A DNA stretch of 64,000 nucleotides from Eledone cirrhosa (Eukaryota), in contig OZ024748.1 in the NCBI GenBank assembly GCA_964016885.1, positions 19,592,001 to 19,656,000 of the forward strand. Reading direction: 5' to 3'. The notes under the pieces are model-generated. The model worked only from the letters and a program-made list of their open reading frames with translations. It was not told the origin of the DNA and did no database searches. Of the stretch, positions 19,422 to 60,573 are shown piece after piece. A program made the position numbers and the translations under genes. Within the stretch, counting starts at the first letter, position 1, and each line of letters starts with the position of its first letter.

Positions 19422-19589
19422 TAACGGAAGAAATGTGGTAAGGAACCAGGTGGACCATAACGCACCAAAGTACTCAATACTTAGGGTAGTAGAGTGGGTA
19501 ATAGGAACGAGTAGGACCCTGACGGCTGAGCTCAAGCCGTTTCGTCGAAACGGCTTGAGCTCAGCCGTCGGGGTCCTACTCGTTCCTAT
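19422..19589 (-). mobile_element. Palindrome+tail element (family P) in (TA)n
   Basis: Palindrome 19501-19589 plus a tail homologous to 31175-31252. Confidence 0.85.
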
Positions 19590-20011
19590 ATATATATATT
19601 ATATATATATATATATATATATATATATATATATATATATATGTGTGTGTGTGGTGTATGTGTGTGATTGTGTGTGTGGTGAATTTGGATATGCATATGT
19701 TTACATGCATAGAGCTATACATATAAACTGACACACACACAATGTATGTATATATATATATATATATATATATATATATATATATATATACTGTTATATT
19801 TGGGCGGGGAAGGGTCATAGTGTTATAATATTGCCATTTCATATCAAGAACCTTGCAAAACAAATTGTGTGTGTGTGTGTGTGTGTGTGTGTGTGTGTGT
19901 GTGCGTGTGTGTGGATTTTGTATATCTAAGGATTTACGGTAGGTTTAATAACTAAACATCTTGACACCCTAGCTATAAATTGAAAGGCTGGCGGCCAGCA
20001 CCGTCTAGCGG

Positions 20012-20100
20012 ATTCTAGCAGAAACAGAAGATAACTGTCTATGCATTTCGAGCTCTGACATTCATCAGCACAGTGCTTCTCCTGGCTCTCTGCTGGAATT
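20012..20100 (-). ncRNA. Decayed minimal type I hammerhead ribozyme
   Basis: Minus strand ACTGTG-CTGATGA-atgtcagagctc-GAAA-TGCA-TA-GACAGT; palindromic stem III ATGCAT; mismatches at the bases of stems I and II. Confidence 0.5.
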
Positions 20101-21293
20101 TGAAACAGGCGAAAACATATAGCTCTTTAACTCGTGTATGTGGGCTGATTAGCCACATTTACATAAGCAACTGCGCATCCGCCAAAGTGCCTTCGAATCA
20201 CACACATGTCTTAAATGGAGAATAAAGCATTGAATTATTTCAACATTGTTAAATTATAGTATTAACAATATATATGGCTTGTTTATATCTGTAACTTTGT
20301 GGCATCTGTAGCATCTGTAGCATCTATAGCATCAAATATCTGCCTGCTGTGACCTAGCATGAAGTTAAATAACAACTGCAGCAATAGCAACAACAATAAC
20401 ATGTGCCCATCCTCCATTTCACAGTGAAAACCTTCCTTCCGTTTTATAAATAATTTACTTTTATAAATACGGACATGGACACACACACCTACACACACAC
20501 ACACACACACATACACACTCACAAACAAACACACATACATACACACATACACACTTCCACATACACACATAGGCGCGCACACACACACACTCTTATACAC
20601 ATACAGACACACACGCAGATATAAACACATATAGACCCACACATACATATGTATATATATATATATATACAATGCTTATGTTTATTTGTCTGCCTGTCCG
20701 TATAAATATATATATATATATATATATATATATATATATATATATGTGTGTGTGTGGGCGTGTGTGTAAGTATGTATGAAATTATATATTATTTATATAT
20801 GTATCTATTTATATATGTATATGTGTTTGTATGCATGTATGCATATATGTATGTGTGTATGTTATGTATGTATGTATGTATGCATCCATCCACTTATGTA
20901 TGTATGTATATGCAATACACACACACACACACACATATATATATATATAAATTCATGCGTGGGCGTGTATTTATTTGTCCGCCTTTCTCTGTGTCCATGC
21001 ATATATATATATATATATATATATATATATATATATATATATATATATATACGTGTCTGTAAATGTGTGTGTGTGTGTGTAAATGTGTATGTGTGTTCTT
21101 TGTGTAAATGTGTATGCGTTACTGGGTGTAATGTAGATTTCATTACAATTGATATTGTAAAGTAGGGCAGCTTCATATAAATATTTACTCATAAATGTTG
21201 AAATGAAGGGAACACAAGGAAGCTGGTCCCTGAGAAATACATTGAAAATGAAAGATATCTTATACGACTATATATTTGCATAAGTGTAGGTAT

Positions 21294-21830
21294 AAGGCAT
21301 AGTGTATAGAGCGTTGAATTTACAGTCGTGAGGTTGTGAGTTCGATTCCCGGACAAGGCTTTGTGCTGTGTTCTTGAGCAAGACAGTATAGTTCACATTG
21401 GTCCTTGCATATGTGAAGGCTCACGGCATAGTGGTTAGGGCGTTGGGTTCTAAGTTATGAGGTTGTGAGTTCAATTCCCTAACTGGGCGGTGTGTTGTGT
21501 TCATGCGCAAGCCAATATAGCTTTTGAATGCTCCTCCTTACGCATTGGAAGGTCTGCGGCTTTGTTGATAGAGAGTTAAGTCAACAATCGTGAGGTTGTG
21601 AATTCGACCCCTGGACCGGGTGATGCGTAGTGTTCTTCATCACGTTGCTCCTTACATATATGAAGGCGTGTAGCTTAATGGTTATAGTGCTGGGTTCAGA
21701 ATCGTGAGGGTGTGAGTTCGATTCCCGGACAAGGCATTGCGTTCTGTACTTGAGTAAGAGGCTATATATTTCACGTTACTCCAGTCTCTTCAGCTGTAGA
21801 AATGAGTTGCGACCTCATTGGTACCACGTT
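21294..21830 (+). mobile_element. Four tandem tRNA-derived SINE family B heads (CORE-like)
   Basis: GGC..AGTGGTTAG A-box, GAGTTCGATTCCC B-box, then GTGTTCTTGAGCAAGAC..TTTCACGTT. Confidence 0.8.
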
Positions 21831-22639
21831 GTATTGGATTTTGCCTCTCCCTTCTTGGACCTCATAGTTGGTGTGGGGGAGAGAGACAAGTATGTTTGGG
21901 CTAGTGCTGCTCTTCCTTATGTACAGGTTTCTGATTTATGTATAAGTCTGTATTACCTATTTATTTTATATTCTGTTTTTGCTGAATTATTTATCCATTT
22001 TTCTACATACTCAGAGTAGAAAAGGGTTTCAAGGAATCCTTGGAGGGGTTGATGAAGGCCTTAATAAATTGGGGACACCTTGAACTTATGACTCACAAAT
22101 AATTGTCAAATTTTGATGTTAAACCTGGCGATGTTTTTATGTCTACCAATTTCAGTTAGTAAGGAAGTTGAGTTGTTAAATTGCTAAGCACATCTGAACA
22201 TAATTATTGCTGGCATGGTACTGCAAATGGAGGATTAATGAATTTTGTATATGAAATATGCTGCATATATTATGTTGTAAACGTTAATGACGTGGAGAAA
22301 ATTACAATGTGGAGAAAATTTCAGTGTTCTGTCTTTTGGTAAAAATAAATCTTTCCGTCTGTAATTACTTTAGGTTCAGCATACGGTCTCAGATCAATTT
22401 ACATGACAAACAAATAGCAACTCCGAGATTCTATGTAATATATATACAAAACATTATGCTGAAAATACAATTTAAAATAATTTTGAGCAAACTAATGCTG
22501 TCGTCAGTATCTTGTATGTTGATAAAACACGTGTTCAGAGCAGCCAGATTTTGAGTTCAACTTGAACACTGGAAAATATCCGTTAGAATATCAATTTGTA
22601 AAACACATAAAGTCCACACAATGGGGTCTCGGCATACGC

Positions 22640-58565: not shown

Positions 58566-58639
58566 CCTAGTTGGGTTTAATGGTAGTACCGGCTCTGATT
58601 GCAGAAGACAATCTACTGGTCGCTGTCCGACAGGTTGTG

Positions 58640-58985
58640 GTCGTGTCCTTGGCAGTGGAGACTTCTGGTGTCCTTGGCCCTAGGGCTACCTCCCTACTCA
58701 CCACCATAGGCGCTGAGCTGGCCAGCCCCAGGTGTGAGCCTCGCAAGCTGGAATGGCTCTTCCAGAGCATCTCTCTTACCATTCTCCGGGGAAACACCTT
58801 CTCCATTCTGTCCGCCGGGGTTGTGGGGTGTCCAGTACGTGCGAGCCCATTTGCCCTTTCATGTTCGGACACATTGCACCCGTCAAAAGTGTATTTTCAT
58901 ACCAATTAAATTAGTTAATGCGTACGAAAGTTATATCGTGTCTAACATTTGTATTCGTATTAATATGATAGTCTTGAATAAAATA
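58640..58985 (+). mobile_element. CRE-like RLE non-LTR retrotransposon 3' fragment
   Basis: LAVETSGVLGPRATSLLTTIG..EPRKLEWLFQSISLTILRGNTFSIL resembles the CRE C-terminal pattern (AVET.G..GP.A..FLFQRLS.A.QRGNA); AATAAA near the end. Confidence 0.7.
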
Positions 58986-60280
58986 TAATATTGCTTTCCT
59001 GTAAAACGAGAAAGTAAGAAAGCAATTGGCTGGATCGTTATAGAAGGGTTTATAGCAACAACGTAATTTAGCTATATTTAAATCAGTTCCTTAAACTAAT
59101 ATCCCTAGTAATGGTATTTTATGAACTGTCACAGTTTGTATGTAAACAAAATGTTCCCGAGGGACTGACTTTCCTCGTTGTTATTCTGTTTCACCATGAC
59201 CCTATTTACTGTACCTGATACTTCTATAAAATGGTAGAAGTTAGCAAGTGATTTGTGTAGTATTTGAAATGTATCAATTTGCAGTTAGAAAGTTAAGAGG
59301 TGAAGAGATTTCTCGAAGGGGAACAACAATTTGAAGGGTTAACTTATCAGTTGACTCCTAATCCCATATTCTCGGTTCATTTACGGATCCCCGAGAGCCT
59401 AAGATTTCTAGAAGCTTGCTTGTGATCACGGATCTTCTGCTAGCCTTTTTACAGAGATCAAACTAAAAACTGATTCAAGGTAACCCATGCTATTCTTTGT
59501 CTCTTCCTCTGCAGTCGTCTTTTGCAAAATATATCTGGGTTAGTAGAATAAGTTATACCACCATCTGAGCCTGTAGGGCTATTAGAAGAGTTTACTTTGT
59601 TTCAAGAATCCGACTCAGGTCTCTATCATGGTCACTGATCCTCAGCTCATCTGTTTACGGGGATCAAAATAAAAAGAGCTCCTCTTTGTCTGTTTCTATA
59701 TAATCCATCAAAATGGTTTGCAAACATGAAAATATCTGGATTAATATATATGTAGAGGTCGGAAGGAAAGAAAGACAGGAAAGAAAGCAAGAAAGAGAAA
59801 GAAGGAAGGAAAGAAAGAAAACAGGAAGGGAAGTAAGAAAGAAACAACGAAATAAATAAATAAATAAATAAATAAATAAAGAAAGAAAGAAAGAAAGTAA
59901 CAAAGAAAGAAAGAAAGAAAGAGGGAAATAAATAAAAAAAGAAGGTTAGAAAGGTAGGAAAAAGGAAAATGGAAATAAAAAAAAACAAAGAAAAAAGGAA
60001 AAAGAAACACGACAAAGTAAAAGGTAAAAAGTAAACGAGTTTAAATTTCAGAAATGACTTTAGGCTAGTAATTCAAAGTGGCTTAATTTTCACGGACATT
60101 GTTGTGTTCTTGTGTAAAGTAGAGCATCAGAAATTCGAAAGCTAAACATCATAATGAACCATTCTGTTTTTCAGACTTACATAACAATGATAGAATCATG
60201 ACAGAGCATTTACATAAATCCATTGAAAATGTGATGCTTAGCTATATATATATATATATCAATATATATATATTATATAT

Positions 60281-60346
60281 ACGTTATTCCGGGTTGAATC
60301 GGAGGTAACCACAGTAAGTAAGGTACTCAATACATAGCAGAGTATA
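60281..60346 (-). mobile_element. 66-bp element in (TA)n (copy of 25641-25706)
   Basis: Exact reverse complement. Confidence 0.85.
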
Positions 60347-60410
60347 TATTATATATATATATATATATATATTATATATATATATATATATATATATATA
60401 TATATATATA

Positions 60411-60573
60411 TAGGAAAAGGTATGACCCCGACGGCAGGGCTCATTCGACGGCTATTTCTGGACTAGAAACAGCTTGAGCTCTGCCGTCGGGGTCATACCT
60501 TTTCCTATCACCCACTCTACTATAGAGTATTCTGGTGCGTTATAGTCCATCTGGTTCCTTACCACAATTCCTT
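60411..60573 (+). mobile_element. Palindrome+tail element (family P variant)
   Basis: TAGGAAAAGGTATGACCCCGACGGCAG..CTGCCGTCGGGGTCATACCTTTTCCTA plus tail ..CTGGTGCGTTATAGTCCATCTGGTTCCTTACCACA. Confidence 0.85.

Follow-up and report, generated by a model that had tools for sequence, protein, structure and literature searches.

The closest described systems are the Penelope-like elements (PLEs) of the Hydra clade, for which Craig et al. 2021 (PMC8557442) give a ~700-aa ORF with a C-terminal GIY-YIG endonuclease, the motifs RW(R/K), DKT, CxxC and CxH, a CxCX5C linker, a (TA)n target, a hammerhead in the pLTR and a tail on either end; an inverted 5'-truncated copy is given there for Penelope-13_HM. 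The Penelopes of D. virilis and A. vaga, as presented in PMC2377424 and PMC3846280, have partial-tandem pLTRs, an inverted head-to-head pLTR, a tail that may be absent and, where present, overlaps the beginning of the body, and palindromes at the inverted junction that are read as the result of self-priming; transcription of D. virilis Penelope starts within the pLTR. The formation of inverted pLTRs and tails and the regeneration of pLTRs are stated as open in passages of PMC8557442 and PMC2377424. The PLE hammerheads of Cervera and de la Pena 2014 (PMC4209133, in part) show a type I fold, a U3-A8 core, a palindromic helix III and a long helix II whose base is G-C, and occur as opposite-strand motif pairs 100-700 bp apart. 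Non-LTR retrozymes (bioRxiv 10.64898/2026.07.22.740005, in part) are non-autonomous, hammerhead-related and linked to PLE pLTRs.

The family found here in Eledone cirrhosa, whose element is ~3.2 kb long and has a single ORF encoding RT together with a GIY-YIG endonuclease at the C terminus, shares these various traits and differs in others. Most Hydra families listed in PMC8557442 are 2-3 kb (compared by description) and the tail in that clade is 30-40 nt, against 82 nt here. Four new Hydra hammerheads in its supplement have the canonical CUGANGA and short stems, whereas the core studied here is mostly UUGANAA and helices II and III measure 11 bp and 5 bp, with a loop II of 35 nt; and, unlike the Hydra-clade PLEs as described in that paper, the family consists of ~10^5 mostly ORF-less stubs. 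The full 5-bp helix III with its 9-nt loop also sets it apart from the hammerheads described in PMC4209133, and the arm lengths argue for two cDNAs rather than for the self-priming proposed for D. virilis and A. vaga. Unlike the non-LTR retrozymes as far as the preprint describes them, the short copies are truncations of an ORF-bearing element; a retrozyme was rejected as a candidate because tandem monomers were not seen among the short copies sampled and the hammerhead core is missing. Since the inverted truncated pLTR, the tail, the (TA)n target and the hammerhead are all published PLE traits, the kind of element is already known, and as such it is ordinary. A literature search, with subscription papers and Repbase reports mostly outside its scope, retrieved neither two-ended priming in PLEs nor the Eledone family.

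The window (the complete stretch of 64,000 nt that was analysed, contig OZ024748.1, positions 19,592,001 to 19,656,000) contains five inserts of this family (Table 1). They had been listed in an earlier note, made from the letters alone; all five were found at the positions given, and when they were searched against the window by BLAST, they came back as mutual matches (E-values 1e-46 to 1e-5) with no sixth copy. The note had described the complete copies as palindromes; copy 1 is a near-perfect one (89 bp, 96.6% arm identity), copy 3 one of 122 bp (92%), and copies 2 and 5 are lopsided and pair only in their outer ~44 and ~33 bp, respectively; the 'centre' of copy 2 is genuine element sequence, namely hammerhead loop II. 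A conserved unpaired tail was indeed present; it measured ~80-82 nt and was shorter in copy 5 by deletion. Copy 4 is a lone arm without tail, with (TA)n on its right and (CA)n on its left. The arms hold the GAAA, stem III, the GUC site and the stem I 3' strand, and their ends are alike within a copy and unlike between copies, both as read before; the hammerhead 5' core, the CUGANGA half that had been called missing, occurs in none of the window's five copies. The stem II 3' strand, absent from that first list of arm parts, was also seen in the arms of copies 2-5.

Table 1. Parts of the five inserts in window coordinates. Arm-end positions are given in nt relative to the cut site of the ribozyme, a minus sign meaning upstream; the pile-up site is the place where arm 5' ends accumulate.
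Copy	Feature	Position	Strand
1	Tail (= start of element body), ends in (TA)n	19424..19503	-
1	pLTR arm with tail, subfamily C, 5' end ~26 nt upstream of cut site	19504..19544	-
1	Tail-less arm, GUC ending 19569, then (TA)n	19545..19586	+
2	Inverted arm without tail, subfamily A	27223..27264	-
2	Forward arm, most of loop II, to ~65 nt upstream of cut site, GUC ending 27329	27265..27348	+
2	Tail	27349..27430	+
3	Inverted arm without tail, subfamily A, end near pile-up site	31056..31112	-
3	Junction filler	31113..31118	.
3	Forward arm: stem II 3' strand, GAAA, stem III, GUC (ends 31153), stem I 3' strand	31119..31172	+
3	Tail	31173..31252	+
4	Single arm without tail, subfamily B, start 36 nt upstream of cut site	39840..39892	+
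5	Inverted arm without tail, subfamily B, reaching pile-up site (-41), small internal deletion	60413..60464	-
5	Forward arm	60465..60505	+
5	Tail, internal deletion	60506..60572	+

The five inserts are 5'-truncated copies of a Hydra-clade PLE with roughly 10^5 insertions genome-wide, and we regard their PLE identity as almost certain. Extension of longer copies in the 5' direction, as had been suggested, recovered both the missing hammerhead half and the RT and GIY-YIG ORF that was to be looked for, be it that the core was mostly UUGANAA and not the expected CUGANGA: the arm runs unbroken into a complete type I hammerhead motif and then into the ORF (L121, L160, L162). The full-length copy L156 is composed of a short pLTR, the tail, an ATG ORF and a 3' pLTR, and the pLTRs occur as partial tandems in either direct or inverted orientation, in some cases with a tail (L156, L121, L154, L160). 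The tail corresponds to the first 82 nt of the element body; its run-on into the body was found by walking out from the ORF, a sequence pattern for run-on tails having given 11 matches with unrelated flanks. A 5' extension guessed from L020 was dropped, as it did not recur in other copies.

In fold comparisons, ORF residues 332-437 aligned with the GIY-YIG domain of I-TevI (Z 9.3, rmsd 2.5, 91/94 aligned) and the N-part with RT palms (Z ~8). Pfam and PDB sequence searches with the element ORF were blank and gave a weak GIY-YIG match for one homologue, and Foldseek returned no match at E <= 0.001. The motifs read in the ORF were RWR, DKT, CNCPDRSTC, CNLC and CKH. The CxCX5C linker pattern was present in 113/120 homologues, CxxC and CxH flank a conserved E and N as in the Hydra clade, and inspection by eye showed no CCHH motif such as other EN+ PLEs with a C-terminal endonuclease have; a close homologue (41%) derives from Apostichopus japonicus, host of listed Hydra families. 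Judged by the motifs read in the ORF and by the (TA)n target, the clade is Hydra. Neptune, the clade taken first, was dropped on the linker (CxCX5C, not CX2-5CxxC), and Naiad was ruled out on the position of EN (C-terminal rather than N-terminal).

The inserts are short, palindromic, very numerous and have TA at their ends, as would be the case for a MITE or foldback DNA transposon whose inherited inverted repeats had later lost their centres. However, the arms continue into a retroelement ORF, and we count this reading as refuted by the continuity with RT and GIY-YIG; in addition, the partner is an RT element, the arms range from a few bases to kilobases without fixed TIRs or length, the tail switches sides relative to an asymmetric centre and the duplications are 13-14 bp, which together leave a negligible probability. 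Neither a transposase partner nor a fixed TIR structure was seen, and the longer copies and variable centres support what the earlier note had proposed, that the palindromes were formed at insertion by a (TA)n-preferring PLE and not inherited as MITE TIRs.

The 5' half of the type I hammerhead motif in the pLTR was matched 2997 times (reversed control: 0). The core was mostly U3-A8 UUGANAA (78/100 matches listed, with the canonical CUGANGA in 1/100), and a literal CTGANGA pattern upstream of the arm therefore yielded just 7 matches, with unrelated flanks and taken as chance. Subfamily C, represented in the window by copy 1, has a non-pairing C3/A8 core, unlike the hammerheads in the available part of PMC4209133. 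In 20 long copies 91.7% of 434 helix cells were paired and four helix II pairs were altered on both sides; this covariation essentially reflects a single split between two subfamilies, and double-change pairs were not above shuffles (306/500). Rfam showed no hammerhead among 150 of 301 window matches listed, nor in one long copy, and RNAfold on a long copy did not choose the hammerhead fold (z -0.92 for the long subfamily A copy). Arm ends were also examined for accumulation at the ribozyme cut site, and none was seen in 70 tail arms and 43 partner arms (4/70 and 3/43 ends within 3 nt).

The expectation of variable centres was borne out by 42 distinct arm-end pairs among 43 inserts, but the variation is strongly bounded: arm 5' ends vary independently yet accumulate, in subfamilies A and B alike, at 40-41 nt upstream of the cut site. 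The arms holding the stem II 3' strand ended at -36 to -43 in 64/78 (A) and 68/88 (B) cases, with a mode at -40/-41. This limit lies 3' of the UUGANAA core, and consequently short copies keep the cleavage half alone. Moreover, 9/26 3'-cut tail-ORF copies were joined to a new arm starting at -39 to -41, with varying ORF join positions. The upstream pLTR exceeded the limit in 11/30 tail-ORF copies, and thus longer templates or jumps exist.

That the limit is a putative transcription start site has, in our estimate, just short of an even chance. A non-template G preceded the -41 A in 4/4 direct-joined copies that keep the A, which fits a capped end better than a block of the RT. A cap-G test was weak: under a permissive filter it showed no signal (p 0.57-0.74), and under a stricter one it gave 22/39 versus 14/49 (p 0.008), where the control set was skewed by the search query and the signal came from subfamily B (subfamily A: 7/16). 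With the same two-ended priming, the limit might instead be an RT block in loop II, by a small, conserved CUAA/UUAG helix or a protein-bound boundary (cf. the telomerase template boundary). RNAalifold predicts a 4-5 bp helix with its 3' strand starting exactly at -40 and kept in 18-20/20 copies although the surrounding loop varies, and the limit is passed by some arms and upstream pLTRs; a 4-bp A-U-rich helix alone would, however, be a weak block, and we consider this reading somewhat unlikely. A 3' splice site at the limit (the AG of -41/-40), with the short copies derived from spliced RNA, is very unlikely: in both subfamilies the AG is accompanied by a CTAA word lying 14 nt upstream, and an intron end maps to the D. 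virilis Penelope hammerhead (in the part of PMC4209133 concerned), but the junctions have no upstream exon in common, many arms keep the AG, the joins to the ORF lie at varying places and those checked by eye were not GT donors.

TA was found at both ends of 107/139 two-armed inserts and (TA)n adjoined 68/70 tail ends. Target-site duplications of 13-14 bp were recovered in L077, L170 and L038, i.e. 3/22 inserts with non-pure-TA flanks (shuffled control: mean 0.12, max 2); in the remaining inserts the duplication is hidden in (TA)n. The inserts end at two fixed places, the pLTR end and the tail end, each just before a TA within the element itself. One arm is tailed and the other tail-less, and the tail is found on either arm.

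The tail arm was more than 5 nt shorter than its partner in 19/43 inserts, longer in 8/43 and within 5 nt in 16/43, and the shorter tail arms favour two cDNAs, each primed separately, over the fold-back of a single one. For one recurring asymmetric centre, inspected by eye at 30 loci, the short arm bore the tail in 17 and the long arm in 11, with 2 unclassified, and in L121 a 57-nt tail arm stands opposite a 2.36-kb tail-less arm. Later deletions at palindrome centres could be an alternative cause of the lopsided arms. A single cDNA that folds back and primes itself, as proposed for PLEs in the part of PMC3846280 that treats them, would explain that variants are usually common to both arms: in subfamilies B and C the arms differed by 2.81 within against 7.4 between inserts (within lower in 33/35), which equally speaks for two cDNAs copied from the same source RNA, although the comparison was uninformative for subfamily A (4.48 versus 4.73, 27/48), left out 34/117 pairs as unclassified or mixed, and gene conversion could cause the same likeness. 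The recurring centre likewise fits a 3-4 bp fold-back (at least 66 exact matches) and many centres are tight hairpins. A tail-primed fold-back cannot, however, yield a tail-less arm extending beyond the tail arm in the 5' direction, as seen in the 19/43 inserts, in 17/28 classified loci of the recurring centre and in L121, and mixed-source inserts occur as well (L026, which joins arms from two subfamilies, and L327). Self-priming is therefore improbable, and two separate cDNAs per insert are favoured with reasonable confidence.

Taken as a whole, the inserts are head-to-head 5'-truncated pLTR arms of a Hydra-clade PLE, likely formed on insertion when the two ends of a single endonuclease cut in (TA)n were extended separately on element RNA and then joined. 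In this scheme: i) GIY-YIG would make a staggered cut of 13-14 bp in (TA)n; ii) priming would take place at the end of the tail for one DNA end and at the end of the pLTR for the other, in most cases with one RNA or two sibling RNAs as template; iii) both cDNAs would halt within hammerhead loop II at the fixed template limit, which is most likely the RNA 5' end with a putative start site at the A of a TTAGT word; and iv) the two cDNAs would be joined through microhomology or filler. More tentatively, the RNA may start inside its own ribozyme, so that the transcript would have just the cleavage half at its 5' end as well as a 60-nt terminal repeat, and the RT may prime from both cut ends at two fixed sites that lie within the first 142 nt, the strong-stop-like cDNAs being either joined head to head (10^5 stubs) or jumping templates, by which pLTRs and tails would be regenerated. 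With its two fixed priming sites and a single sharp limit of the template, the family offers ~10^5 reaction products made in nature, which makes self-priming and two-ended priming distinguishable. New from the sample are the non-random arm ends, the occurrence of the tail on either arm and the often shorter tail arm.

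The five stretches of the window lie where the earlier note had placed them and belong to a single family, with mutual matches down to E 1e-46 (BLAST within the window); a BLAST search with all five recovered no sixth family P copy there. Copies 1 and 3 form well-matched palindromes; copies 2 and 5 are lopsided, and copy 4 is a lone arm. With the GUC cut site as position 0, the end of the arm is at about +19 and that of the tail at about +101. Within the 3.0-Gb genome, exact 27-mer matches numbered 2359 (arm end) and 3387 (tail; reversed controls 0), and forty evenly spaced 10-kb stretches contained 15 arm/tail clusters (reversed control 0). 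Merging two long palindromes by eye turned these clusters into 13 insertions, three with the ribozyme 5' half; the density of ~32 per Mb corresponds to roughly 10^5 insertions genome-wide (Poisson range ~5x10^4 to 1.7x10^5).

The hammerhead half reported as missing is present in longer copies, mostly with a variant core and not the canonical CUGANGA. One longer copy, L069, was found among 30 loci, and a search with its upstream sequence yielded 995 first-look candidates, of which 40 were scored. The long copies contain, in order: stem I, UUGANAA, a long helix II, GAAA, helix III (with a palindromic loop), GUC and stem I. The predicted pairing is found in 91.7% of 434 cells in 20 long copies (slid controls: 27-50%). 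Four helix II pairs are altered on both sides. In essence this is a single split that separates subfamily A from subfamily B, and double-changed pairs in these 20 copies were no more numerous than in shuffles. Rfam and RNAfold did not recover a hammerhead fold for family P. The predicted 5' half has 2997 genome matches; among the 100 matches listed the core was U3-A8 (78), C3/A8 (17), U3/G8 (4) or canonical (1), position 7 being free. The U3-A8 core is shared with PLE hammerheads already described in PMC4209133. A canonical CTGANGA-type pattern gave 7 matches with unrelated flanks and was rejected as the missing half. Subfamily C (L390, L357 and window copy 1) has a CUGAGAA core with a non-pairing C3/A8 and is abundant all the same, so that family P may not require an intact core to spread.

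Extension of longer copies in the 5' direction, as the earlier note had suggested, led to a PLE ORF with reverse transcriptase (RT) and endonuclease (EN). Four copies have >1.4 kb of upstream sequence in common, encoding thumb, cysteine linker and endonuclease. The locus L121 is the anatomy of the window copies on a large scale: (TA)n, reversed tail, short inverted arm, a 2.36-kb forward arm holding RT, EN, 3' UTR and predicted hammerhead, and (TA)n. ORF, arm and tail are continuous in L160 and L162, and the full-length L156 comprises a 47-bp pLTR, tail, ATG, a broken ORF that aligns end to end with 700-aa homologues, and a 3' pLTR. From this layout it follows that the element body begins with the tail and that each insert end lies immediately ahead of a TA belonging to the element itself. 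The 461-aa frame of L153, a related copy (77% to L121), has 935 homologues at E <= 1e-10, and comparison of its structure model (pLDDT 78.9) with known folds gave matches to the GIY-YIG domain of I-TevI at Z 9.3 and to RT palms at Z about 8. The protein motifs, as read from sequence, agree with the definition of the Hydra clade in PMC8557442. Five element-fragment copies (L128-L130, L133, L134; 95-99% identical, flanks shared) apparently are a segmental or tandem duplication.

The proposal that the palindromes formed at PLE insertion stands, amended in two points: the core is a variant one and the centre is bounded. A tail-anchored set was taken as the first 70 loci on one contig, selected blind to the arm; 43 had an inverted tail-less partner, and these 43 showed 42 distinct arm-end pairs, in line with the variable centres noted earlier. 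Of 139 two-armed inserts, 107 have TA at each end, and 13-14 bp duplications occur in 3 of the 22 with informative flanks. At 30 loci with one recurring asymmetric centre (by eye), the inverted arm carried the tail in 17 cases and the forward arm in 11, with 2 unclassified; the unit was therefore not inherited whole. Arm differences in subfamilies B and C were 2.81 within inserts versus 7.4 between (within lower in 33/35), the comparison leaving out 34 of 117 pairs as unclassified or mixed and being uninformative for subfamily A; post-insertion gene conversion could have added to the likeness. Head-to-head 5'-half pairs among the matches listed had the same 19-mer in 14 of 16 cases (by eye), and arms of different sources are joined in L026 and L327. 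Inside one insert (L047) a 15-bp tail piece is repeated ~14 times in tandem, as from RT slippage.

A single tail-primed cDNA might fold back and self-prime the second arm, as proposed in PMC3846280, in which case the tail arm should never be the shorter one. However, in the 43 two-armed inserts it was >5 nt shorter than its partner in 19, longer in 8 and within 5 nt in 16. Together with an arm-end correlation that is at most weak (rho 0.24, p 0.12, tail-anchored set), this argues for two cDNAs per insert, each end of the cut being extended into its own; later deletions at palindrome centres are the main caveat.

The arms share a limit. Among arms with the helix II 3' strand, the end falls between -36 and -43 in 64 of 78 for subfamily A and in 68 of 88 for B, most often at -40/-41, by an ungapped method that undercounts long arms. 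In the tail-anchored set the range -36 to -44 takes in the ends of 20 of 70 tail arms and 22 of 43 partners; 4 and 2 extend past -50, and only 4 and 3 stop near the cut site. The limit has the same position in two subfamilies despite a different loop II, at the A of TTAGT, a word similar to the initiator consensus. Among 30 tail-into-ORF copies the upstream pLTR is longer than the limit in 11 and ends at it in 5. Nine of 26 tail-ORF copies breaking off from the reference run into a new arm that begins at -39 to -41, the ORF position of the join differing between copies. A non-template G is present in 4/4 of those that keep the A; such joins look as if the RT had reached the end of a template and jumped. 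The candidate jumps (L259, L260, L265, L267, L268, L271, L273, L274, L277) have 5' ORF pieces of varying length in direct-orientation join to an arm starting at the limit. The cap-G test was null under one filter and positive under a second, whose control is skewed; the signal is suggestive. The limit might instead be an RT block and not an RNA 5' end, and a conserved 4-5 bp helix does begin there; in D. virilis Penelope a start site lies inside the pLTR (PMC2377424). A start site combined with strong-stop is a reading we consider possible, if rather doubtful.

For PLEs, the published traits already include inverted truncated pLTRs, a hammerhead within the pLTR, insertion into (TA)n and a tail on one end or the other. 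By its protein motifs, family P is a new and highly abundant Hydra-clade PLE, and its hammerhead differs from the four new Hydra hammerheads among 30 supplement rows of PMC8557442. What it adds bears on mechanism: priming at two fixed sites, arms that are independent of each other and a single sharp limit turn an open question into a testable one.

A second palindrome-plus-tail family, with CTGAAGA and GAAAC words in its palindromes elsewhere, is likely another PLE with a predicted hammerhead; its tail-like piece lies in (TA)n in the window and at L030, L033, L065 and L298. A third palindromic family adjoins (TA)n beside family P copies, in the flanks of L012, L034 and L047. The LINE fragments of the window include REL-type endonuclease-like ends and an RTE-like thumb with C2H2 fingers.

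Coordinates of further features in the window and at related loci
Feature	Location	Remarks
LINE ORF 3' fragments	window 3716-4522, 9414-10598, 62979-63668	Pfam zf-RVT and C2H2 matches
Assembly gap (run of N)	window, from 40061	170 bases downstream of copy 4
25-bp satellite	window ~45570-53690	~8 kb array, strong G skew
Tail-like piece, second family	window ~60278-60345	
Five element-fragment copies	C3 (genome contig) 89.4-90.3 Mb	
RTE-like LINE	L123 (-) 4243-7221	intact 993-aa APE-RT ORF, adjoining family P body
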